64,000 nt of DNA. Origin: a virus (lineage: Duplodnaviria > Heunggongvirae > Uroviricota > Caudoviricetes). A program made the translations under genes and the position numbers. The notes beneath the pieces are model-generated. The model did not search any database, was not told the DNA's origin, and was given only the letters and a program-made list of their open reading frames with translations. Numbering within the stretch: the stretch's first letter is position 1; every line of letters starts with the position of its first letter. Location of the stretch: positions 36,792-100,791 of the IMG/VR virus record IMGVR_UViG_3300046004_001633. The stretch is one strand, 5' to 3'. Positions 1,601 through 37,393 of this stretch are shown here, one piece after another.

Positions 1601-1833
1601 AATCTATCTTCTATTTCCCAATATTCGTCCTGTGTTATTTCTTCTCGCATTACCATATTATCTAGCTCCCTACATATATTATCTACATATAAACTTCGCT
1701 GAAATTCTAATGCTGGGATATCATAAAAAAATGGAACTTCGGTTGCATATTTCAATTGCATGAACTTTCCATGTTCCCACTCATCGTGTAGTCTAGCTTC
1801 ATACATTTCTACTAGGGCATCTATATCTACCAT
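1597..1833 (-). CDS. hypothetical protein
   Basis: 78 aa ORF with a 4-nt overlap to its neighbours (operon-style packing). Confidence 0.45.
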   Translation of the reverse strand: MVDIDALVEMYEARLHDEWEHGKFMQLKYATEVPFFYDIPALEFQRSLYVDNICRELDNMVMREEITQDEYWEIEDRL

Positions 1834-2528
1834 AACCAGTTAACTTCGTTTGTAATCGGATTCCAATCAAATGTCAAAGGCTTTTGAGTGTAATTGTATC
1901 GCTCATTTAATACAGAAGCATTAAAGTAATGCGTTTGCCCATTAAAATAATACCCATATCCTGAATGAATATGTCCACATACATGGATCTTTGGTTTAAC
2001 TACCTCATTTATATGCTTTGCTAGCAACTCACAACCTAAATGGTCTCCACGTCGACCTTCAACATCATCCAATGTTCCCCAAGCTGGAGAATGTGTAACT
2101 AGGATATCTGTGTTGGTTGGAATTGCATCCCATTTTGATTGCAGTTCCTCTCCGTTGCGAGGTAGGTTAAACGCCCAATTATAAAAATAAGGTTGCCATG
2201 GTGAACCATAAATAACTAATTGTTGATCTTCTTTATCCCATAAATCTAATCTAGCATCTTCAAGATAATCAATAGTCTTATATCCAGTCAATATTCCTTT
2301 TGCTTCCTCCGGTTCATCTTGCATCCAACGATCATGATTACCAGCAATAAATATTTTTGCATCGTAATTATCAATTTCATCGAACCATTTAAAGAATTGC
2401 ATTGCCTCCATTGGATTATATCCCGAAGTCATAAAGTCACCTGCATGGATAAGCAAAGCACCACCCGGTAGATCTTCTGTTACTTGTTTATGCTTTGCGT
2501 GTGTATCTGAAATTAGTGTTATTTTCAT
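1827..2528 (-). CDS. calcineurin-like metallophosphoesterase
   Basis: Motifs LISDTH, GDF, GNHD and GHIHSG match the metallophosphatase signature D-x-H...GD...GNH[DE]...GH. Confidence 0.75.
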   Translation of the reverse strand: MKITLISDTHAKHKQVTEDLPGGALLIHAGDFMTSGYNPMEAMQFFKWFDEIDNYDAKIFIAGNHDRWMQDEPEEAKGILTGYKTIDYLEDARLDLWDKEDQQLVIYGSPWQPYFYNWAFNLPRNGEELQSKWDAIPTNTDILVTHSPAWGTLDDVEGRRGDHLGCELLAKHINEVVKPKIHVCGHIHSGYGYYFNGQTHYFNASVLNERYNYTQKPLTFDWNPITNEVNWLW

Positions 2529-3445: not shown

Positions 3446-3994
3446 AATACCGACGCCTTTACTTTCACGAGGACTTGCATGTCTTTTTCAATATTTCTAT
3501 CTTAGGACCCCACCGGTATTTTTTGTAGGGCTCCCAATATCCCTACACGCACCTAAAGTTTTATCCCTAAAGTGATTACTCACCGCAAATCGGGGCCGGC
3601 TGGTGTTTATCCTTTAACCGGATTGGTTTTAATAGTTGAGGTTGAGAACCTCTGTGTTGTGTATGCAGAACTTCTCATACCTTCATCTCATTCATACCTC
3701 ACATGAACAACACATTTAATAAAACTAAGGCGTATTACATTATACTACTTTCTCTTACGAGCCTGTGACAGTTCTAGCTGCCTATTTCCTTAGTTTTAAT
3801 AACATACCCTGTCAGCCCAAGTTGCTGAATATTAGACTTAGCATTAAAGGGTTGTCCTAATATCCTTCCGCAAACAACTCCACTCTTGGTTGTGGATTCT
3901 AACTTCAATAGTTTCTGTACCGAAATACAGGTTGGAATACACAACAGTTATTTGTTTACTTCAAGCAGGGTAATATTTCAAAGAACGTTTTAGA

Positions 3995-4063
3995 AGCGGA
4001 TTCAGGACTCGAACCTGGCCATGGGGTTATGAGCCCCTTGTGCTACCAATTACACCAAACCGC
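3995..4063 (-). tRNA. tRNA-Met/fMet (anticodon CAT), short form
   Basis: T-arm CCAGG-TTCGAGT-CCTGA. Anticodon loop CTCATAA with a GGG/CCC anticodon stem. D-loop TAATTGGTAG. Acceptor has a 1-72 mismatch (initiator-like). Confidence 0.6.
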
Positions 4064-4069
4064 AATGTG

Positions 4070-4143
4070 TACTCCTAGCAGGACTCGAACCTGCAACGAC
4101 TAGATCCTAAATCTAGTGTGTCTACCAATTCCACCATAGAAGC
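4070..4143 (-). tRNA. type-I tRNA with anticodon TAG (Leu-decoding anticodon, short 5-nt variable loop)
   Basis: Clean cloverleaf. Acceptor GCTTCTA/TAGGAGT with two G-U pairs. Anticodon stem CTAGA/TCTAG, loop TTTAGGA. Variable loop TCGTT. T-arm GCAGG-TTCGAGT-CCTGC. Discriminator A. Confidence 0.55.
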
Positions 4144-4170
4144 ATTTATACCAATATTGTCAATGAACTT

Positions 4171-4226
4171 TGTCTTCTTAATTACTCTTATATAATAAGA
4201 AATAAATCAATTGAATCCAACCTTTT
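4171..4226 (-). promoter_or_regulatory. sigma70-like promoter motif TTGGAT-N17-TATTAT inside the tRNA cluster
   Basis: Minus strand: TTGGAT (4220..4215), 17-nt spacer, TATTAT (4197..4192). Shares the AGAAAT spacer signature with 8 other copies. Confidence 0.5.
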
Positions 4227-4242
4227 CGGAAACTTTTTTGAG

Positions 4243-4312
4243 TATAAGGTAAGAATCGAACTTACACTATTAGTTTTGCAGACTAACCGACCACCCCAAT
4301 CAACTTATACAA
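4243..4312 (-). tRNA. tRNA-Cys (anticodon GCA)
   Basis: Acceptor GTATAAG/CTTATAC. Anticodon stem TTAGT/ACTAA, loop CTGCAAA. T-arm GTAAG-TTCGATT-CTTAC. Weak D-stem. Confidence 0.5.
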
Positions 4313-4315
4313 TTG

Positions 4316-4388
4316 TGGACAGAGAGGGAATTGAACCCGCGACACCTAGAGCTTCAATCTAGTGCTCTACCAACTGAGCTACCTGTCC
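4316..4388 (-). tRNA. tRNA-Phe (anticodon GAA)
   Basis: GGACAGG-TA-GCTC-AGTTGGTAGA-GCAC. Anticodon stem CTAGA/TCTAG, loop TTGAAGC. T-loop TTCAATT. Confidence 0.85.
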
Positions 4389-4456
4389 TTCTTCGGGGAG
4401 GACTTGGCTGAGGTATCCTAACGGTTCTACCCTCAACACTCGCCTCCCGTCTTATG
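4389..4456 (-). ncRNA. GC-rich 68-nt hairpin element between tRNA-Trp and tRNA-Phe (possible tRNA remnant or small RNA)
   Basis: Minus strand GGGAGGCG...CCTCCCCG forms a long stem. No T-loop or anticodon architecture. Confidence 0.25.
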
Positions 4457-4530
4457 CACGCCTGGATGGATTCGAACCACCAACACTTGGATTTGGAATC
4501 CAATGCTCTACCAATTGGAGCTACAGACGC
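4457..4530 (-). tRNA. tRNA-Trp (anticodon CCA)
   Basis: GCGTCTG-TA-GCTC-CAATTGGTA-GAGC. Anticodon stem TTGGA/TCCAA, loop TTCCAAA. T-arm GGTGG-TTCGAAT-CCATC. Confidence 0.8.
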
Positions 4531-4574
4531 ATTTTATCCGACCTAGCTCGGATCACACATCGGATCTTTTATTG

Positions 4575-4647
4575 TACCCTTACAGAGACTCAAACTCCAA
4601 TCTTCCCCTTAGAAGGGGGATGTTCTATTCAATTGAACTATAAAGGC
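4575..4647 (-). tRNA. tRNA-Arg (anticodon TCT) with non-canonical T-loop TTTGAGT and a D-loop lacking GG
   Basis: GCCTTTA-TA-GTTC-AATTGAATA-GAAC. Anticodon stem TCCCC/GGGGA, loop CTTCTAA. T-arm TGGAG-TTTGAGT-CTCTG. Confidence 0.7.
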
Positions 4648-4652
4648 ATTAG

Positions 4653-4724
4653 TACCCTCAAAGAGATTCGAACTCCTATTCCTCGGTTCGTAGCCGAGTG
4701 TTCTATCCGTTGAACTATGTGGGC
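4653..4724 (-). tRNA. tRNA-Arg (anticodon ACG)
   Basis: GCCCACA-TA-GTTC-AACGGATA-GAAC. Anticodon stem CTCGG/CCGAG, loop CTACGAA. T-arm AGGAG-TTCGAAT-CTCTT. Confidence 0.8.
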
Positions 4725-4730
4725 AATTTG

Positions 4731-4804
4731 GGTGAATGGTGGGTTTCGATCCCACTACCTCCAGAATCACAATCTGGCACTCTTCCGATTGAGCTACAAA
4801 CACC
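4731..4804 (-). tRNA. tRNA-His (anticodon GTG) with extra 5' G-1
   Basis: G-1 opposite C73. D-arm GCTC-AATCGGAA-GAGT. Anticodon stem CCAGA/TCTGG, loop TTGTGAT. Unusual T-loop ATCGAAA in GTGGG/CCCAC stem. Confidence 0.7.
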
Positions 4805-4805
4805 A

Positions 4806-4836
4806 TTTAAAAAACCCCACTCCGTAAGTGGGGAGG
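4806..4836 (-). terminator. hairpin plus U7 tract immediately 5' of tRNA-His
   Basis: CCCCAC-UUACGGA-GUGGGG on the minus strand followed by UUUUUUU. Ends 4 nt before the tRNA-His 5' end. Confidence 0.5.
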
Positions 4837-4839
4837 GCA

Positions 4840-5066
4840 ACTTAAGGCAATGCCATTGGATGAACTAGTCATCGCCATTACATGCACACTTTGTGTACCG
4901 TAGTACCGAGTAATGGTAATGATCCACTCTAAGGTCGGATATGAACCAACCTCGGTCCCTGACCACTCGGCATTCTGTGGAAGACAGTGTACTCGAAACA
5001 CATACCTTGCGGTACCACTCGCTTAGCAGGCGGTGACAGTTCCTAACTGCTTTACCTTCCATTGTG
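4840..5066 (-). ncRNA. ~225-nt ORF-poor structured spacer in the tRNA cluster (candidate stable small RNA)
   Basis: No tRNA signatures. Only short shadow ORFs. Moderately GC-rich with many local stems. Position is analogous to the T4 tRNA-region stable RNAs. Confidence 0.25.
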
Positions 5067-5140
5067 TATTCAAGATAGGATTTGAACCTATGACCTCCTC
5101 GGTATCAGCGAGGCGCTCTAACCAACTGAGCTACATGAAT
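5067..5140 (-). tRNA. tRNA-Ile (anticodon GAT)
   Basis: ATTCATG-TA-GCTC-AGTTGGTTA-GAGC. Anticodon stem CCTCG/CGAGG, loop CTGATAC. T-arm ATAGG-TTCAAAT-CCTAT. Confidence 0.85.
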
Positions 5141-5146
5141 ATATTG

Positions 5147-5218
5147 AGGACTAGGGGAATTACGATATCCCGACCTGACGCTTAACAGGCGCCTGCTCTG
5201 CCTCTGAGCTACCAATCC
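5147..5218 (-). tRNA. tRNA-Asn (anticodon GTT) with atypical T-loop ATCGTAA
   Basis: GGATTGG-TA-GCTC-AGAGGCA-GAGC. Anticodon stem GGCGC/GCGTC, loop CTGTTAA. T-region GGGAT-ATCGTAA-TTCCC. Confidence 0.65.
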
Positions 5219-5224
5219 TTATAG

Positions 5225-5308
5225 TGCCGCAGGTAGGATTCGAACCTACTCAGCCTTCCGACAACAGATTTACAGTCTGCCCCGACTCTCCAACTTCAGC
5301 GCTACGGC
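5225..5308 (-). tRNA. tRNA-Tyr (anticodon GTA), type II with long variable arm
   Basis: Acceptor GCCGTAG/CTGCGGC. Anticodon stem GCAGA/TCTGT, loop CTGTAAA. 14-nt variable arm. T-arm GTAGG-TTCGAAT-CCTAC. Confidence 0.8.
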
Positions 5309-5313
5309 ATTTG

Positions 5314-5386
5314 TACACCCTATAGGATTCGAACCTATGACATTTGCTATGTAAAAGCAATGCTCTACCAACTGAGCTAAAGGTGC
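5314..5386 (-). tRNA. tRNA-Val (anticodon TAC)
   Basis: GCACCTT-TA-GCTC-AGTTGGTA-GAGC. Anticodon stem TTGCT/AGCAA, loop TTTACAT. T-arm ATAGG-TTCGAAT-CCTAT. Confidence 0.85.
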
Positions 5387-5395
5387 ATTTGTTTG

Positions 5396-5469
5396 TGATC
5401 CCGGTGAGGTTCGAACTCACGACTCCCTAATTAAAAGTTAGGTGCTCTAACCAACTGAGCTACGAGATC
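5396..5469 (-). tRNA. tRNA-Lys (anticodon TTT)
   Basis: GATCTCG-TA-GCTC-AGTTGGTTA-GAGC. Anticodon stem CCTAA/TTAGG, loop CTTTTAA. T-arm GTGAG-TTCGAAC-CTCAC. Confidence 0.85.
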
Positions 5470-5539
5470 GGTCGTTTGCGATACTTATCGCTCTTGTCAC
5501 TTTCCATGATCTACCTTTTATTTGTTATTAACTGTTTTG

Positions 5540-5612
5540 TCGAAAGTGCCAGATTCGAACTGTGCTTGAATGTCCCAAACATCCCGTGCTACCGGATTAC
5601 ACTACACTCTCG
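5540..5612 (-). tRNA. tRNA-Pro (anticodon TGG), irregular T-stem
   Basis: CGAGAGT acceptor. D-arm GTG-TAATCCGGTAG-CAC. Anticodon stem GGATG/CATTC, loop TTTGGGA. T-loop TTCGAAT with only 3 clean T-stem pairs. Overlaps the last codons of ORF 5597..6229. Confidence 0.55.
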
Positions 5613-6229
5613 ATATAATTTTTAATAATTGAAATATCACCATATATTATATTAATACATGTTGAAACTTTTTCCATTTTTTCTTTGCCCACTTCCATAC
5701 AATGTGGATTTTTTGGATCTAAATACATATCATAGTCAGTCAAATAAAAATCTGGATAATATAATCTAGATTTACCATCATTACTAATCCATTTAATACA
5801 AGCAGGTCGTATCCACTTTATATTTTTACTATCTAATAATTGAGCTATTTCCAATTCCCAACTCGATTCTAAAACAACTCCGTTATATATTATAGTTTTC
5901 CTACTGCCGTTTCTATAAGAACGATTCGTGCTAGCGCTAATACTACATAGTCTAGAACATGTTTTCTTTTTTCTATTATTATATTCTAATTTAGTTTTAC
6001 AAATTTTACAATGATTTGGATTTTCATTATATAATAATATATTTTTAGCGAGTATTTTATCTGACCCATTATACATACTTCTAAATGGTTGAAGTTTTAG
6101 TATACTATCCGATATTTTCTTTTTAACTTCATCGCTCCGATCTCTGCTATTTCTACATTGCAAAGAACAATATGAAACCAAACCTTTTGTGGGTTCAAAT
6201 TCATCGCTACATTTCTTACATATTTTCAT
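5597..6229 (-). CDS. Zn-finger protein with PD-(D/E)XK-like C-terminal region (possible homing endonuclease embedded in the tRNA cluster)
   Basis: Two Cys4 ribbons (CKKC...CSLQC and CKIC...CSRLC). C-terminal LESSWELEIAQLLD...YYPDFYL resembles a restriction-endonuclease-like core. AT-rich gene between two tRNA blocks. Confidence 0.35.
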   Translation of the reverse strand: MKICKKCSDEFEPTKGLVSYCSLQCRNSRDRSDEVKKKISDSILKLQPFRSMYNGSDKILAKNILLYNENPNHCKICKTKLEYNNRKKKTCSRLCSISASTNRSYRNGSRKTIIYNGVVLESSWELEIAQLLDSKNIKWIRPACIKWISNDGKSRLYYPDFYLTDYDMYLDPKNPHCMEVGKEKMEKVSTCINIIYGDISIIKNYIESVV

Positions 6230-6289
6230 ACAATTCCTTTATTATAAATATAGAGTCGAACCTCAAACCATACAATCAAACTGTTATTG

Positions 6290-6373
6290 AGGAAGCCTGA
6301 GGTATCGATCCCCATACCTTTCGGTACCACTAGTTTTCAAGACTAGGTTAAGCGCCAGCTTAATTAAACTTCC
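6290..6373 (-). tRNA. tRNA-Ser (anticodon TGA), type II with atypical T-loop ATCGATA
   Basis: Acceptor GGAAGTT/GGCTTCC. Anticodon stem CTAGT/ACTAG, loop CTTGAAA. Long variable arm TGGTACCGAAAGGTA. T-region TGGGG-ATCGATA-CCTCA. Confidence 0.65.
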
Positions 6374-6378
6374 TTATG

Positions 6379-6450
6379 ATCTCCCCCAAGGTCTCGAACC
6401 TTAATTTTATGGCCCAAAACCACACGTCCTGCCAATTAGACGAGGGGAGA
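6379..6450 (-). tRNA. tRNA-Gln (anticodon TTG)
   Basis: TCTCCCC-TC-GTC-AATTGGCAG-GAC. Anticodon stem TGTGG/CCATA, loop TTTTGGG. T-arm TAAGG-TTCGAGA-CCTTG. Confidence 0.7.
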
Positions 6451-6487
6451 ATTTAATTTACCAATATGTCAAACAACTTTTATTCTG

Positions 6488-6560
6488 AGCTTTCTATAGG
6501 ATTCGAACCTATGACCCCTTCATTACAAGTGAAGTGCTCTACCAACTGAGCTAAGAAAGC
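6488..6560 (-). tRNA. tRNA-Thr (anticodon TGT)
   Basis: GCTTTCT-TA-GCTC-AGTTGGTA-GAGC. Anticodon stem CTTCA/TGAAG, loop CTTGTAA. T-arm ATAGG-TTCGAAT-CCTAT. Confidence 0.85.
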
Positions 6561-7285: not shown

Positions 7286-8515
7286 TTAATTACTTAAGGG
7301 AGCTTTAATTGATGGGTGTGACTGATAGTTTTGAATTTGAAAGTCGGATATTTCAAGTCCTTGAAGATTTGTTGCTAATGGTCCTACACCACATTCTCCG
7401 GATTCCGTTGGCCAAAACTCTGTGTTGATGTTTAATGTAGGTAGTGGATATGGTTCTCTTGTTCGTTTTGGGATACCAGCTTTATCAAATTGTTCTTCAC
7501 GAGACCAATCATTCATTCTAAACTCATATCCTTTATCTTCAAACATTATATACCTTTCAGATTCACTTAATTCCCTCCCAGTTTGTTCTTTTGCTTGTTC
7601 AATATGATTCAAATACAAATGCGTATCACCCAAGTTTCCAATCAATTCATCAGGAACCATATTAACTGCCTTAGCAATGATTTCTAATAACAGGCCGTAA
7701 GATGCAATGTTGAATGGTAAACCTAAGAATGTATCTACTGAACGTTGATTCCACATTAAAGAGATTGCTCTGGTTGGGCTATTTTCGTAATTTAAATCTT
7801 CTTCAATTTGTTCTCTCGTTCTGTTTAGATAATATAAACCTCTAACATTATGAGAATATTCAAATCGTTCTTCCCAACTCAACTCTCTTGTATAAACTTG
7901 AAACCCATAATGACATGGTGGAAGTACCATTAAATCCAATTCTCCAACATTCCAAGCATTAACCATCAATCGTCTTGAGTCCGGGTTTGTTTTAAGGTCG
8001 TTGATTAGGTTTGTAATTTGGTCTGTAACTTTAACTGCAACTTGACAATTTTCTTCTGTTACATTATATGGTATGAATTGCTTCCATTCTCTCCATTGTT
8101 TACCATACACGGGACCTAAGTCACCAAACTGATCAGCATGCCATTTATCGAGACTAATCGACTTAATCAACTCTTCCTGTGTAAACTTTTTAGGTACATC
8201 AAACGGTGTGGTTTTGCTCATATGTTCATACCATTTTTCATATGCTTTATAGGCATCCCCATCCCAAATATGACAATCATTGTCTACTAAATACTTAATG
8301 TTTGTATCACCACGTAAGAACCATAACAATTCTGTTGTAATTGTTTTGAATGGCATTTTCTTTGTTGTAAGAAGTGGAAATCCATCACTCATTTTATGAC
8401 GGATCTGTCTACCAAAAACACTAATTGTGCCAGTCCCAGTACGATCCATTTTACGGGTACCATTATCTAAAATGTCCTGTAATAAATCTGTGTATTGCCT
8501 ATCTAAATTATTCAT
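7286..8515 (-). CDS. thyA: thymidylate synthase (ThyA type) with insertions
   Basis: DRTGTGT, LLWFLRGDTN, PPCH (catalytic Cys), QRSVDTFLGLPFNIASY, GDTHLYLNH and HPSIKAPL all present. 409 aa because of inserts, one of which is duplicated in the adjacent ORF. Confidence 0.85.
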   Translation of the reverse strand: MNNLDRQYTDLLQDILDNGTRKMDRTGTGTISVFGRQIRHKMSDGFPLLTTKKMPFKTITTELLWFLRGDTNIKYLVDNDCHIWDGDAYKAYEKWYEHMSKTTPFDVPKKFTQEELIKSISLDKWHADQFGDLGPVYGKQWREWKQFIPYNVTEENCQVAVKVTDQITNLINDLKTNPDSRRLMVNAWNVGELDLMVLPPCHYGFQVYTRELSWEERFEYSHNVRGLYYLNRTREQIEEDLNYENSPTRAISLMWNQRSVDTFLGLPFNIASYGLLLEIIAKAVNMVPDELIGNLGDTHLYLNHIEQAKEQTGRELSESERYIMFEDKGYEFRMNDWSREEQFDKAGIPKRTREPYPLPTLNINTEFWPTESGECGVGPLATNLQGLEISDFQIQNYQSHPSIKAPLSN

Positions 8516-8633: not shown

Positions 8634-8978
8634 TTACTCATAACTTTCTATTGTCGTATCGTTGTATTTAACTGTGATTAGTTTGGTTGGTATTCCTGCT
8701 TTATTGTATTGTTCTTCTTTAGACCAGTTATTCATCATAAATTCATAACCCCTTTCATCGAATATTTGATATCTTTCTTTCTCAATCAACTCTCGTTCTT
8801 CAATCTTTAATCCCCACTTTTCAGAGAACTCTGGATCTGTTTTGATTTTGTTAATGAATTCTTCTTGTGTTAAACACTTATTAGTATAAGGTCCAGAAAA
8901 TGGTGGATTTTCTTTTAACCATTCTGTTTGATAGTTCTTATAAGCCTCATCCACTAATTCTTGTTGTTCTTTACTCAT
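8634..8978 (-). CDS. hypothetical protein sharing a ~30-aa module with the ThyA insert
   Basis: C-terminal ERYQIFDERGYEFMMNNWSKEEQYNKAGIP versus ThyA ERYIMFEDKGYEFRMNDWSREEQFDKAGIP. About 70% DNA identity over ~90 bp. Confidence 0.5.
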   Translation of the reverse strand: MSKEQQELVDEAYKNYQTEWLKENPPFSGPYTNKCLTQEEFINKIKTDPEFSEKWGLKIEERELIEKERYQIFDERGYEFMMNNWSKEEQYNKAGIPTKLITVKYNDTTIESYE

Positions 8979-9541: not shown

Positions 9542-9850
9542 TTATTTAGAGCCAAACGTTGGGTTGAATTTGAAATCAACCCAAACTTTAGCAACAATTA
9601 AATTTAATCCTATCATGTAGCAGTTTACTAGATTACCTTCCCCAAACGTCTTTTTGATGGTGTCAGCATTATCTTTTCCAGCTTTTGTTCGACCAACTGC
9701 TCTAGATCGTTTGGCCCAAATACCTAATGACCACTTACGTCTAATGTCATTAGCCTCATAGTTTTCTAAAATGCTATCAGATCCTTCTTCCCATCGGTGT
9801 CTCAACACCCATGTTGCTTTAAAGCTTCCTATTCTAGTTCGTGTTATCAT
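9542..9850 (-). CDS. hypothetical protein
   Basis: 102 aa basic ORF abutting the ligase gene. Confidence 0.4.
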   Translation of the reverse strand: MITRTRIGSFKATWVLRHRWEEGSDSILENYEANDIRRKWSLGIWAKRSRAVGRTKAGKDNADTIKKTFGEGNLVNCYMIGLNLIVAKVWVDFKFNPTFGSK

Positions 9851-10977
9851 TAGTGTGAGTCTCCTACGTTATGTTTTTCTCCGTAGATTAAGTAATCTGG
9901 ATTGATCACTTTAGCTACTTTGTTTCTAGCTCCAGACCATTCCTTAATTACAATACCTTCGTGTGGCACTTTAGTTCCCGGGATAAAGTTCTTAAAGACA
10001 TATTTATCTTGCACTGCTTGGGACCATTTACCGATGTATAGTTCTTCTACACAAGGTAATCCCAACAATCCGATTGTTATCACAGAATTAAATGCATTCT
10101 CATACTTACCATTTACTACCACATCAAATCCAACAAACTCAATATCAGTTAACCCATAATCATAATTCGTTTGAATCCCAGCACCATAAATTTCTCCATA
10201 CAATACAATACCAGAACCTAAGTCAGATGGATAATCATAAATTTGTTCTACATGATCCCACAGCATTCGTCTGATATTGTATTTATCTGCAACTGTTCTC
10301 CATACATCAGTCGAGTAGAATCCTTGTGAATCAGATCCTTTCTCGCAATTATGTGATCCATATACATATTCATAGTCAATCCATTTATTAGCAACTCGGA
10401 AGAATTTCTTCAACTTGTCCCATCTAGATAGTGTCGTTTTCTTTACGATTCCATAACGTGCATTGGTGCCGTGTATCTTACGTGTAATCTCAACATTATC
10501 CTCTTCTGTAAACATACCCGTAACATTCTTGAGGTTAGGGAACTTGTAGTAGATGTGGAAGTTTGGATTGTCACGGTATTTAATCTTACGACCAGAAGCC
10601 AATTGGATTTGTTTAACTGGTGGTTCATACTTAGTAATGCCAAGTTCTTCCATTACATCTGTTCCATCTGTAATCGACTTAAATCGGATATGTACAATTG
10701 GAATAATTAAACATTCACTATAAACGCCGCGAAGTTTAACTGTTCTTACTCGTTGTCCTTTTCTCAAGTATCCGGTTACTCCAACCTTGTCAGATAATTC
10801 TTGTGGAATTACAGCATCAGTAGTTGCAATTATAACTAAGGAATCTTTGTTATATTCACCTTTTTTGGTAATTGCATTCCAACCACCTACTACTGCTAAC
10901 TCAATGTTGTCTGCGCCTTCAATTGCTTTAATTTCGGTTACTCGTCCTACGTAACATACGCTGTTTTGATTTTCCAT
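9850..10977 (-). CDS. ATP-dependent RNA ligase, Rnl2/Rnl5-like with N-terminal OB-like domain
   Basis: Nucleotidyltransferase motif I KIHGTN (as in T4 Rnl2 K35) at ~residue 168. Preceded by a ~160-aa N-terminal domain as in Naegleria/Deinococcus Rnl5-type nick-sealing ligases. Adjacent to kinase and phosphoesterase genes. Confidence 0.55.
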   Translation of the reverse strand: MENQNSVCYVGRVTEIKAIEGADNIELAVVGGWNAITKKGEYNKDSLVIIATTDAVIPQELSDKVGVTGYLRKGQRVRTVKLRGVYSECLIIPIVHIRFKSITDGTDVMEELGITKYEPPVKQIQLASGRKIKYRDNPNFHIYYKFPNLKNVTGMFTEEDNVEITRKIHGTNARYGIVKKTTLSRWDKLKKFFRVANKWIDYEYVYGSHNCEKGSDSQGFYSTDVWRTVADKYNIRRMLWDHVEQIYDYPSDLGSGIVLYGEIYGAGIQTNYDYGLTDIEFVGFDVVVNGKYENAFNSVITIGLLGLPCVEELYIGKWSQAVQDKYVFKNFIPGTKVPHEGIVIKEWSGARNKVAKVINPDYLIYGEKHNVGDSH

Positions 10978-10980
10978 TTC

Positions 10981-11364
10981 TTACAATTTTATTTCAAATC
11001 TGTTTTTCATTTGTTCTAACTTGTCTGCTGGTACTCCGTGGGCATTTACGCTGGCGTGTCGGTTTTCAACAATAACAGAAGAAACACGATATCCATATTG
11101 TTCAGCTAACCAATAATAAGCATCCATTTCCCATTCCTGAGTAAATGTGTTTGAAACTACAATGCTAAATCCTTTTACCATCCATGCTTCTGTCACTTCT
11201 TGGCACCATTTATGGGCTGCTTTGAGTTTAGATGCATCGAATTTATATTCACCATCATGCATAAAGTATCGATCTGCCTCAACATGATGAGTATCAACTA
11301 AATGTTTTGCAAATGTTGTTTTACCACTGCCAGGTAAACCTCTTAATAAGATTAATTCTTTCAT
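10981..11364 (-). CDS. P-loop polynucleotide kinase-like protein (5'-OH kinase)
   Basis: LRGLPGSGKTTFAKHL Walker A. 127 aa AAA_33/Pnk-like kinase domain. Genomic context between ligase and phosphoesterase. Confidence 0.55.
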   Translation of the reverse strand: MKELILLRGLPGSGKTTFAKHLVDTHHVEADRYFMHDGEYKFDASKLKAAHKWCQEVTEAWMVKGFSIVVSNTFTQEWEMDAYYWLAEQYGYRVSSVIVENRHASVNAHGVPADKLEQMKNRFEIKL

Positions 11365-11376
11365 AGCTAATTTATG

Positions 11377-11898
11377 TTAACGGGTAATTCCTAATTGTTC
11401 CAATGTCTTTGGCGTGTAATCAACTTGCTCACATGATACTCCGTGGTATCTACGATCAACACGCTTAAATATAGTGAAGCCCATAATGGTTATTTGCTTC
11501 ATTACAATATTTTCATGAATATGGCCGTGAATGATGCGTGGTACGCGGTGTTCTAACTCCATCGGGTGCACTGGGCAATGAGATAACCAAATGCCTTTAT
11601 ATCGTGTTAAACCACTAACAGATTGAACATACTTCATCAACTCCAGAATATCTCTTGGTAGATCATGATTTCCTAACACAACCTTTTTCATTCCGTTTAG
11701 TCTGGATAACAATGGATACGGTTTAGCCGATTCCATTGTTACATCACCTAGGATATATGTTAGGTCTTGTTTTTTAACTACACTGTTCCATTGGGTAATG
11801 ATGTGCTCATCATGTTCCTCTACTGTAGCAAAGCCACGTTTCAATGCCATGTTAACATGACCAAAATGTAGATCTGCTATAAATCTTACTTGTGCCAT
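11377..11898 (-). CDS. calcineurin-like phosphoesterase (candidate 2',3'-phosphatase of the RNA repair cassette)
   Basis: DLHFGH, GDV, GNHD and GHIHE metallophosphatase motifs. 173 aa. Same fold as the phosphatase domain of Clostridium thermocellum Pnkp. Confidence 0.6.
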   Translation of the reverse strand: MAQVRFIADLHFGHVNMALKRGFATVEEHDEHIITQWNSVVKKQDLTYILGDVTMESAKPYPLLSRLNGMKKVVLGNHDLPRDILELMKYVQSVSGLTRYKGIWLSHCPVHPMELEHRVPRIIHGHIHENIVMKQITIMGFTIFKRVDRRYHGVSCEQVDYTPKTLEQLGITR

Positions 11899-11920: not shown

Positions 11921-12151
11921 TTAATCGGCAATATCCAAATCTATATCAGGAATTGTTTCGCAAAACATAAAATGAGTTCCTGATTGAATAACTATATCAG
12001 CTCCACACCATTGTTGGAACATTTCTATGTATTCTCTGCGAGGAGCAGTGTCAATGCGTTCAGCAAAGTGATGTATTAGTTTTTGGTGTAGCACATGATA
12101 TGCTACGTCGTTGTGTGTTATGATGTTACCTAGCATAGCTCTGGAATACAC
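11921..12151 (-). CDS. hypothetical protein
   Basis: 76 aa. Overlaps the next ORF by 26 nt. Confidence 0.35.
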   Translation of the reverse strand: MYSRAMLGNIITHNDVAYHVLHQKLIHHFAERIDTAPRREYIEMFQQWCGADIVIQSGTHFMFCETIPDIDLDIAD

Positions 12152-12461
12152 AAATGAATTCTAAATCGTTGTCAGCTCCATGTTCATCGTTCATTACTTT
12201 GTGGAACATTCCACCTGGTATTAAAACAATGTCTCCTGGTTTAATTGGGATGATCTCATCGCCTAATTGCATAGAGCCATAACCGGTTTGGAAGAAGTAT
12301 ACCTCATCTAAGTCGTCATGGCTATGTCCTGTGGTGGTATGGGTTGGGTGTAGTATTGTTTTAGATAATGTTAAATTGTTTAGGATTGCATTGTCTATTA
12401 CCGTGTATACGGCGGTCTCCCGCACTATAGTGCCGGCAATGTCTTGTGTATTTACTTTCAT
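12126..12461 (-). CDS. cupin-fold protein
   Basis: Both cupin motifs present: G-x5-HSH-x3-E-x6-G and GDIVLIPGGMFHKVMN. Confidence 0.6.
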   Translation of the reverse strand: MKVNTQDIAGTIVRETAVYTVIDNAILNNLTLSKTILHPTHTTTGHSHDDLDEVYFFQTGYGSMQLGDEIIPIKPGDIVLIPGGMFHKVMNDEHGADNDLEFICVFQSYAR

Positions 12462-12723: not shown

Positions 12724-14349
<1,626 letters not shown>

Positions 14350-36527: not shown

Positions 36528-37393
36528 AATTGTAATTTGTTCAATATTGTGTTAGTATCCATACCAGATGCTTGTCGTAAGTCATCATATGAACCGTATT
36601 CTGTAATAAATTTATTTTGTATTCCAATTCTAGTTACGGCTACATTAAATGTAGAGCTTATTAAGTCTCCTAAGCCGCCAGTAATAAAATGATTTTCTAC
36701 TGAGAATATTTTGCTATCACTATTGAATACTTTTGAAATTTCATTAATGGACTCTGTTGAGATATTTGATAATGTAGAAACATAGAATATTCCAATTTCT
36801 TCATCACGCAATACATCATCTAATAGATGTCCTGTTACAAACACGTATTTATTATTTTTAGATTTTTGAATAATATTAATCTCATTAGATTTAACTACTA
36901 GATCTTGTGTATGTGAATGATTTGATAATCGAAAATACTTAGGATTACCATTAGCCCATGATTGTTTAAATAATTGTTCGAATTCGGAAGCAGATCCGGG
37001 TTCGTATACATCCATTCCCGGAATACTTCTCATTAATGCAATATCACTATAACAATGATGAGTACAGCCCAAGTCAGCATAATCATATGTTCCACCAACA
37101 GTAATAATTGTAACATCGGTATTTTGATATCCTAATCCAACTTTTATTTGTTCATACGCTCTTTCTACAACAAATGGAGCAATTGTATGTATGATTGGTC
37201 GCATCCCTTCGAGAGACATACCAGCAGCAACATTAACTGTAGATTGTTCGCAAATTCCTATATTAAAAAATCGATCCGGTGCTAGATTCTGGGCATCGCG
37301 CAACAAGTAGTGACTAATATCTCCTATTAATATTACAGATTTGTCATCAGTTTGTACAATATTTTTGCATATTTCTGCGAATTTAGTTCTCAT
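36524..37393 (-). CDS. transketolase, C-terminal subunit (pyrimidine-binding domain)
   Basis: FFNIGICEQSTVNVAAGMSLEGMRPI...GGTYDYADLGCTHH matches the Tkt Pyr domain. Confidence 0.65.
   Translation of the reverse strand: MRTKFAEICKNIVQTDDKSVILIGDISHYLLRDAQNLAPDRFFNIGICEQSTVNVAAGMSLEGMRPIIHTIAPFVVERAYEQIKVGLGYQNTDVTIITVGGTYDYADLGCTHHCYSDIALMRSIPGMDVYEPGSASEFEQLFKQSWANGNPKYFRLSNHSHTQDLVVKSNEINIIQKSKNNKYVFVTGHLLDDVLRDEEIGIFYVSTLSNISTESINEISKVFNSDSKIFSVENHFITGGLGDLISSTFNVAVTRIGIQNKFITEYGSYDDLRQASGMDTNTILNKLQL

Follow-up and report, generated by a model that had tools for sequence, protein, structure and literature searches.

Background

The repair of broken RNA by healing and then sealing its ends is an established concept, known from bacteriophage T4, from the bacterial Pnkp/Hen1 system and from the comparative genomics of jumbo phages. 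The ATP-dependent RNA ligases of phages are accompanied by polynucleotide kinases and by phosphoesterases, which are 'calcineurin-like' in a few cases (PMC7824862). Here we describe a cassette of three genes, encoding a predicted RNA ligase of the Rnl5 type, a minimal P-loop kinase and a metallophosphoesterase, in a 64,000-nucleotide stretch of DNA (hereafter the window) from a virus of the class Caudoviricetes (IMG/VR record IMGVR_UViG_3300046004_001633, positions 36,792 to 100,791). The analysis covered these 64 kb of a source contig of roughly 100 kb. We regard the cassette, with somewhat better than even confidence, as a phage module for RNA end healing and sealing. Its principle is known; what is specific here is the combination of a minimal kinase, an Rnl5 ligase and a phosphoesterase of the T5.034/aq_1665 type.

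Several described systems resemble the cassette in part. The T4 enzymes Pnkp and Rnl1, which counter PrrC, are likewise phage-encoded and imply the same three steps, namely phosphorylation of 5'-OH ends, removal of 2',3'-phosphates and ATP-dependent sealing; the fold of the cassette kinase is nearest to the kinase domain of T4 Pnkp, and in one related locus (L091) the HAD phosphatase of the T4 type is encoded separately, next to the kinase. The cassette differs from the T4 system in that its kinase is a stand-alone protein of 127 amino acids without equivalents of R38 and D85, the phosphoesterase beside it is a metallophosphoesterase instead of a DxDxT HAD domain, and its ligase is an Rnl5 enzyme with an N-terminal OB-type domain instead of an Rnl1 enzyme with a tRNA-specifying C-terminal domain. 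Pnkp of Clostridium thermocellum, from the Pnkp/Hen1 system, likewise combines these three classes of enzyme, with a phosphoesterase of the calcineurin type, and its kinase domain (CthPnk) is also a top structural match of the cassette kinase, but it is a single polypeptide with an Rnl4 ligase whereas the cassette consists of three genes and uses Rnl5. No relative of Hen1 turned up in scans of the neighbouring genes, in which no search aimed at Hen1 was made.

The ligases NgrRnl and DraRnl share with the cassette ligase an N-terminal domain followed by a nucleotidyltransferase (NTase) domain, the lack of a C-terminal domain and a profile match over the full length. Unlike them, the cassette ligase has the motif I KIHGTN in place of KLDGSS, an insertion of about 35 residues between motifs I and III, and a genetic coupling to a Pnk-like kinase. 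Clusters in cultured phages that combine phrog_2071, phrog_547 (subfamily MPE_A) and phrog_562 contain the same kinase family and also keep three separate genes; in these phages (rV5-, PAK_P1- and phAPEC8-like phages, T5-like vibriophages, and Acinetobacter and Aeromonas phages) the ligase is however Rnl1-like and the phosphoesterase belongs to MPE_A. Finally, the Microbacterium phage Yuma encodes an Rnl5-type ligase (gp79) immediately downstream of a T4-type Pnkp (gp80), but there the kinase and a HAD_PNKP phosphatase form one protein, as they do in T4, and a metallophosphoesterase is lacking.

Results and discussion

Organization of the cassette

The cassette is formed by three consecutive open reading frames (ORFs) of the minus strand (Table 1), as had been noticed in an original prediction made from the sequence alone, and the kinase and the phosphoesterase are indeed encoded by separate genes, unlike in T4 Pnkp. 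The split layout is not unusual: it is widespread in cultured phages, and its principle is already found in PMC7824862. More generally, the initial observation is confirmed while its interpretation is supported only partly, the phosphoesterase, the anticodon-loop target and the proximity of tRNAs being weaker elements than claimed.

Table 1. Features of the cassette and of other parts of the window discussed in the text
Feature	Position	Strand	Length (amino acids)	Basis
Predicted Rnl5/DraRnl-type ATP-dependent RNA ligase	9850-10977	-	375	domains, profile, motifs
Minimal stand-alone P-loop kinase, polynucleotide 5'-OH kinase fold	10981-11364	-	127	profile, fold, linkage
Calcineurin-like metallophosphoesterase, T5.034/aq_1665 subfamily (MPE_B)	11377-11898	-	173	motifs, subfamily tree
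Second, unrelated metallophosphoesterase (c6 type), non-adjacent; possible accessory or alternative	1827-2528	-	233	PF00149
Cluster of 17 tRNAs	3993-6560			ARAGORN
18th tRNA, read as tRNA-Ser	~6289-6374	-		Rfam, fold
Thymidylate synthase	7286-8515	-	409	
orf114	8634-8978	-		
Small cupin-domain protein	12126-12461	-		
GroEL-type chaperonin	12724-14346	-	540	
Block with glycosyltransferase-like proteins and aminotransferase	~33000-54000	-		

Only 12 nucleotides separate the phosphoesterase gene from the kinase gene and 3 nucleotides the kinase gene from the ligase gene, while the ligase stop codon overlaps the start of the next ORF by 1 nucleotide (TAATG); all genes of the neighbourhood have the same direction. 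Co-transcription of the cassette would fit this tight spacing, from which alone we deduce it; a scan of sigma-70 consensus promoters and intrinsic terminators gave no enrichment over a shuffled background. All three proteins have homologues of strong significance (5397 proteins at E<=1e-5 for the ligase, at least 7978 for the kinase and 868 for the phosphoesterase) and the genes are therefore real. The ORF at 9542-9850, which overlaps the ligase stop codon, was considered as a fourth component and rejected: it occurs in no more than two of the 80 related loci, and the gene that L096 has at this position bears no relation to it.

The PolB proteins of the phage and of Microcystis phage Mel-JY01 share 42% identity, and a megablast search of the cassette region against 50,697 phage records returned no match. 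Judged by these comparisons, we are dealing with an uncultured virus that is distantly T4-like and has no close cultured relative.

A divergent ligase of the Rnl5 type

The ligase matches the PHA02142 OB-fold domain (PF21189, E-value 3.2e-13) and the RNA_ligase NTase domain (PF09414, E-value 7.5e-12) of Pfam, as well as the RNA ligase family phrog_968 of PHROGs (E-value 9e-55). Its OB-type domain occupies approximately residues 10-125 and is followed by the NTase domain, with nothing appended at the C-terminus. This predicted layout is the one that defines Rnl5, namely an N-terminal domain plus an NTase domain without C-terminal appendage (PMC4408790). The nucleotidyltransferase motifs comprise K167 in motif I (KIHGTN, residues 167-172), E262 in motif III, E340-G341 in motif IV and K356 in motif V, and all of these residues are invariant in an alignment of 13 sequences that are 26-89% identical.

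When compared with the PDB, the profile of the ligase family (A1) matches Naegleria NgrRnl (5cot) with an E-value of 4.5e-44 and covers both domains. In the N domain, profile positions 10-173 align with NgrRnl residues 10-177 (E-value 3e-30); the whole alignment ends at profile position 362 of 372 and at NgrRnl residue 336 of 340, that is, within 4 residues of the C-terminus, and the motif residues align with the NgrRnl segments KLDG, GEI, EGLV and KAI. Pfam, profile and invariant motifs thus bear out the Rnl5/DraRnl architecture that had been proposed, with KIHGTN behind an N-terminal domain, and the match to NgrRnl agrees with the claim that the ligase is of the Rnl5 and not the Rnl1 type. 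A rather Rnl2-like motif I, the insertion and a score to TIGR02306 below its cut-off mark the protein as a divergent branch of Rnl5. Phage homologues of Rnl5 had been noted before (PMC4408790).

Loss of motifs III-V or a DNA ligase identity would have told against an RNA ligase; motifs III-V are present, and the DNA ligase identity was rejected, as the next PDB match after NgrRnl is T4 Rnl2 and two entries named 'DNA ligase' are far weaker (E-values 2.7e-5 and 0.009). In a close relative (4.4-kb contig), the counterpart of window gene 787-1359 is followed shortly downstream by a separate gene for an ATP-dependent DNA ligase, and the phage therefore probably has its own DNA ligase beyond the start of the window.

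A minimal polynucleotide-kinase-like protein

The kinase matches AAA_33 in Pfam (E-value 6.5e-16) and phrog_2071 (E-value 8.8e-39) and, more weakly, the polynucleotide kinase family phrog_505 (E-value 7e-12) and the N-terminal region of phrog_8238. Its P-loop, G9-L-P-G12-S-G14-K15-T16 (GLPGSGKTT), is invariant. Also invariant is D31, the putative general base (equivalent to Cth D38), which a HMMER alignment places at D35 of T4 Pnk, and R102 and R122 are conserved. A gapless count from a shared V-P motif, in which the loop alignment is uncertain, puts the nearly invariant R102 at what we take to be the position of T4 R122 and leaves no arginine at that of R126.

Six residues are essential in T4 Pnk: K15, S16, D35, R38, D85 and R126 (PMC2831316). 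R126 is the lid arginine that touches the beta-phosphate of the nucleoside triphosphate, and D85 is a structural aspartate. From this set, the kinase family keeps the P-loop lysine, the hydroxyl residue and the general-base aspartate (D31).

The strongest PDB matches of the kinase profile (A2) include the Mucorales RNA 5'-OH kinase, CthPnk, T4 Pnk and PSTK. A structure predicted with AlphaFold2 from an alignment of database homologues (mean confidence score, pLDDT, of 83) was compared with known structures using Foldseek, which retrieved T4 Pnkp (E-value 1.5e-6, query-normalised TM-score 0.73) and CthPnk (0.77-0.78 on the same scale), followed by PSTK, mammalian PNKP, Pnkp1 and the Mucorales RNA kinase. 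Fold, profile and gene context together agree with the prediction of a stand-alone P-loop kinase (GSGKTT) of the polynucleotide kinase kind and not of a deoxynucleoside monophosphate (dNMP) kinase. On the basis of sequence and model, we call it a polynucleotide-kinase-like enzyme whose acceptor site is modified, and not a strict member of the T4 Pnk family. Most database labels for this family read 'ATPase'; hundreds of cultured phages carry the small kinase under a wrong label. One homologue, in L019, has an N-terminal extension of about 155 amino acids.

The kinase-ligase pair is a common phage module

To see how the three genes are associated elsewhere, we used two samples of IMG/VR loci, 80 centred on the ligase (L008-L087, with ligases 65-74% identical) and 80 centred on the kinase (L104-L183). 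Both consist of best-scoring relatives that are phylogenetically clustered, and many loci end at contig ends; the counts below are counts of loci and not of independent events. The kinase lies upstream of the ligase on the same strand within 6 kb in 64 of the 80 ligase-centred loci, usually directly adjacent. Reciprocally, a ligase occurs within 5 kb in 51 of the 80 kinase-centred loci, where it is of the Rnl5 type in 29 and Rnl1-like in 28, six loci having both.

In cultured phages, the kinase family (38-52% identity, 623 records) shares gene clusters with Rnl1-like ligases (PF09511/phrog_562) and phrog_547 phosphoesterases. At least seven cultured phage genera show such clusters, as seen in Thalassavirus Gary, Plateaulakevirus phiA009, Pseudomonas phage Pyxpy02, Vequintavirus JES2013, Pakpunavirus Ab02, Phapecoctavirus ukendt and Saclayvirus Acibel004. 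Moreover, kinase, MPE_A phosphoesterase and Rnl1-like ligase match successive regions of phrog_8238, a profile of 737 positions, which suggests a fusion of the three enzymes, a phage counterpart of the bacterial Pnkp layout with another ligase family.

The kinase-ligase pair is therefore the conserved core of the system and a common phage module. One kinase family is linked to two unrelated families of RNA ligases, which is strong evidence that the kinase prepares ends for ligation. The tight coupling to a kinase, together with the cyclic-phosphate-processing domains found in relatives, argues that Rnl5 ligases act on breaks generated by ribonucleases, and the clade offers a practical source of proteins for probing the role of Rnl5.

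Some related loci hold an Rnl5 and an Rnl1-like ligase at once. A more dispersed arrangement is seen in Pakpunavirus genomes such as NC_042113, from cultured Pseudomonas phages: the small kinase has an Rnl1-like ligase as its neighbour at about 11.5 kb, while an Rnl5-like ligase lies apart from them, some 40 kb away, at about 52 kb. These phages would lend themselves to a comparison of what the two ligase types do.

Interchangeable phosphoesterases and the MPE_B subfamily

The phosphoesterase partner of the pair is interchangeable. Near the ligase, the 80 related loci contain MPE_A in 53 cases, a cREC domain, of the kind that processes cyclic phosphates, in 35, a c6-type metallophosphoesterase in 26, a SAK-type HAD in 20, a 2H protein in 11 and a stand-alone HAD_PNKP in three. 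A stand-alone HAD_PNKP directly precedes the kinase and ligase in L091 (order c6-type metallophosphoesterase, HAD_PNKP, kinase, ligase), a HAD_PNKP-kinase tandem that amounts to a split T4 Pnkp. The c6-type gene of the window (PF00149, E-value 2.2e-15; phrog_1649-like) is 66% identical to the L091 copy, and c6-type metallophosphoesterases may belong to the RNA-repair gene set as well. According to this survey, phage RNA repair is built from a mobile kinase-ligase core and interchangeable phosphoesterases, a view that helps to annotate phage genes now called 'ATPase' or 'phosphoesterase'. The neighbourhood of the pair is also a shuffling ground for RNA-end-processing domains (cREC_REC, HAD_SAK_2, 2H/Acb1-like, HAD_PNKP).

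The cassette phosphoesterase belongs to a different branch. It has the motifs D9-x-H11, G51-D52, G76-N77-H78-D79 and G125-H126-I-H128, and the residues of the dinuclear metal site that is typical of the calcineurin-like superfamily (D9, H11, D52, N77, H78, H107, H126 and H128) are invariant among 18 sequences down to 22% identity. It matches PF00149 with an E-value of 1.2e-4 and phrog_547 with an E-value of 6.8e-43. Using a matrix of pairwise bit scores and a neighbour-joining tree, we split phrog_547 into two subfamilies: MPE_A, which holds all ligase-linked members, and MPE_B, which comprises T5.034, proteins of Aeromonas phage BUCT695 and Cellulophaga phage phi14:2, and the window protein. 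The latter scores 32-57 bits against MPE_A, as against 91-138 bits to members of MPE_B. The DxH/GD/GNHD/GHIH motifs of a calcineurin-type phosphatase that had been reported for this gene are thus real, whereas its tie to RNA-end healing is looser than had been supposed, as the T5.034/aq_1665 subfamily is normally not found beside ligases. We consider the protein a candidate healer of 2',3'-cyclic-phosphate or 3'-phosphate ends, and its membership in the cassette is the least certain part of the system. Hidden Markov models of MPE_A, HAD_PNKP, cREC, HAD_SAK_2 and 2H found none of these in the window, save for a weak match of the MPE_A model to the MPE_B gene itself.

The order GroEL-x-x-MPE_B-kinase-(ORF of 113-127 amino acids)-ligase was seen only in L096, L097 and one contig of 3858 nucleotides, at 75-88% identity; in L098 and L099, GroEL-x-x-MPE_B-kinase is visible before the sequence ends. 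The extra ORF between kinase and ligase (5381-5722 in L096, where it matches DUF7448, and 839-1222 in L100) is missing from the window. As far as can be seen from these sequences, the kinase-ligase pair moved beside MPE_B in one sublineage, which seemingly lost the other phosphatases. In the relatives that have the gene order of the window, a homing-endonuclease-like gene with NUMOD3 and a faint match to GIY-YIG SegE lies upstream of and beside GroEL (1756-2310 in L096), and elements of this type could explain the rearrangements around the cassette.

Proposed mechanism

The analysis shows which domains and catalytic motifs the proteins have, which folds they resemble and how their genes are linked; from this we infer the activity of each enzyme, the RNA target and the participation of the phosphoesterase. 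The metallophosphoesterase, the weak link of the scheme, would clear RNA ends of the 2',3'-cyclic phosphate or 3'-phosphate that metal-independent ribonucleases leave behind. The kinase would phosphorylate 5'-OH ends, as its fold, catalytic aspartate and gene linkage suggest. The ligase, whose complete motifs and homology to Rnl5 point to a lysyl-AMP intermediate at K167, would finally join the 5'-phosphate to the 3'-OH end. In most relatives, the 3'-end step would be the task of another metallophosphoesterase subfamily, of a stand-alone T4-type HAD, or of a cREC, 2H or SAK-type HAD protein. Such a module would most plausibly reverse the cleavage of tRNA or other structured RNA by ribonucleases of host defence or toxin systems during infection.

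A role of MPE_B in this scheme is favoured by its intact metal ligands, by the 12-nucleotide gap to the kinase, by a gene order conserved in the subclade and by the failure to detect an alternative RNA-end phosphoesterase in the window. Other findings weigh against the scheme. As regards the phosphoesterase, its fold is no nearer to the CthPnkp and lambda phosphatases than to nucleases, and it stands outside the one metallophosphoesterase clade with proven RNA 2',3'-phosphatase activity; we found no characterised member of the aq_1665/T5.034 group in the literature and no functional study on aq_1665, 1XM7 or COG4186. The window represents 64 of about 100 kb, so that another phosphatase could sit outside. 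For the kinase, an invariant F34, three residues past D31, stands in place of T4 R38, and an invariant N72 aligns with T4 D85 (SNT versus SDT). For the ligase, the TIGR02306 score of 93.6 bits (E-value 1.1e-26) falls under the curated equivalog cut-off of 151.15, although JGI annotates relatives as members of that family; NgrRnl and DraRnl, for their part, seal duplex nicks between 3'-OH RNA and 5'-phosphate ends, are feeble on single-stranded RNA and have unknown physiological substrates (PMC4408790). Lastly, the literature searched contained no measured activity for any member of the three phage families.

Is the phosphoesterase a bystander?

The alternative that survives best, though we hold it to be unlikely, is that repair is carried out by kinase and ligase only, a mobile pair that landed beside a phosphoesterase with another occupation (a nuclease, a nucleotide or signal phosphodiesterase, or a protein phosphatase); 3' healing would then be performed by another phage enzyme (for instance the c6-type protein, or one encoded beyond the window), by the host, or would be needless. 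The distribution of MPE_B speaks for this: it is beside a kinase or ligase in none of the 160 sampled loci, as against 52-53 of each 80 for MPE_A, and it stands alone in T5, BUCT695, phi14:2 and L088 (a 269-kb contig). The phosphoesterase family is also far commoner than the kinase (1889 versus 623 phage records), and the GIY-YIG/NUMOD3 gene beside GroEL in L096 hints at a recombination-prone region.

A case in point is the close relative L089 (Ga0480377_0001526), whose GroEL and phosphoesterase are 97% and 90% identical to those of the window. There, MPE_B keeps its site without an adjoining kinase-ligase pair: the order GroEL-orf87-cupin-orf76-phosphoesterase continues directly with homologues of orf133 and orf114, and the kinase and ligase are found about 11 kb further, past thyA, next to HAD_PNKP in the order c6-type metallophosphoesterase-HAD_PNKP-kinase-ligase.

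Against a bystander stand the same-strand arrangement with its 12-nucleotide gap, which persists in a subclade diverged to about 75% identity, and the consistent linkage of the sister subfamily MPE_A, of the same PHROG, to ligases. Besides, both the window and L096 show no MPE_A, HAD_PNKP, cREC, 2H or SAK-type HAD that could provide 3' healing. On balance, we give the greater weight to a functional displacement, in which MPE_B heals 3' ends, and clearly less to an accidental adjacency.

RNA target and the tRNA cluster

A cluster of 18 tRNAs about 3 kb from the cassette had been announced, and is found: ARAGORN detects 17, and Rfam and folding add one that ARAGORN missed, with a long variable arm and UGA in the predicted anticodon loop. 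In Rfam, this 18th tRNA scores best against the tRNA-Sec model, whose gathering score of 47 it narrowly misses with 44.1 bits. The nearest tRNA lies 3.3 kb from the ligase. The literature returns repeatedly to the tRNA clusters of phages and to anticodon nucleases (PMC7824862, PMC10264068), and repair in the anticodon loop of tRNA is, by analogy, a plausible task for the module. The proximity itself, which had been offered as a clue, is not conserved; since the pair is placed differently in relatives, it carries little weight. Of the repair of tRNAs cut by anticodon nucleases, as it had been proposed, RNA healing and sealing stands as the best reading. The anticodon-loop substrate is the part that we infer and do not take as the default, because the Rnl5 enzymes that have been characterised join nicks in duplexes and do poorly with single-stranded RNA.

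This preference leads to a second alternative, in which the module acts on duplex nicks (in tRNA or rRNA stems, at guide-directed cuts, in RNA:DNA hybrids or in ribonucleotide-patched DNA with 5'-OH ends) instead of anticodon loops. We rate it as quite unlikely as a whole. In addition to the substrates of NgrRnl and DraRnl, for which a repair of RNA-patched DNA has been speculated in the literature (PMC4408790), it can draw on the kinase, which lacks an Arg38 counterpart just as does mammalian PNKP, an enzyme with a preference for duplexes that contain nicks, gaps or recessed ends (PMC2831316). However, the same kinase family is paired equally with Rnl1-like ligases (28 versus 29 of 80 loci), and Rnl1 enzymes are specialists of loop breaks in the division of labour drawn by the literature (PMC4408790); moreover, the phage probably has a separate ATP-dependent DNA ligase. 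More doubtful still is the compound proposal that the pair is specialised for breaks in base-paired RNA or RNA:DNA and, at the same time, that a T5.034/aq_1665-type phosphoesterase displaced the usual 2',3'-phosphatase in this lineage. If true, it would supply a first physiological context for Rnl5 ligases, and the displacement by itself would assign a role to a family of proteins that about 1,900 sequenced phage genomes encode, that of T5 among them.

It is highly improbable that the P-loop protein is a nucleoside or dNMP kinase or an NTPase, in a cluster for nucleotide metabolism with an unrelated ligase, as might be read from the two T4 Pnk essentials without counterpart (R38, D85), the prevailing 'ATPase' labels and the thymidylate synthase and ribonucleotide reductase elsewhere in the window: the match to the dNMP kinase family phrog_139 is limited to the P-loop (residues 1-29), polynucleotide and tRNA kinases are among the structures with the most similar folds, T4 Pnkp and CthPnk leading, and the protein is recurrently linked to RNA ligases of two unrelated families, aligns with the N-terminal part of phrog_8238 and directly follows HAD_PNKP in L091.

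Under the preferred reading, a module for RNA end healing and sealing, a use against defences that cleave tRNA or rRNA would make the cassette a counter-defence determinant relevant to host range.

Other genes of the window

The remaining observations concern genes outside the cassette (Table 1). The GroEL-type chaperonin is full-length and, over its C-terminal 152 residues, shows 97% identity to the protein of a relative; two genes downstream of it, before the cassette, is the small cupin-domain protein. The thymidylate synthase is unusually long, and its residues 314-351 are 63% identical to part of orf114 (E-value 2e-15). This motif of 38 residues, common to thymidylate synthase and orf114, recurs in relatives and could be an inserted or duplicated module. 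Further along, a block of minus-strand genes encodes at least three glycosyltransferase-like proteins and an aminotransferase, and may be a sugar-modification pathway for DNA or the cell surface.

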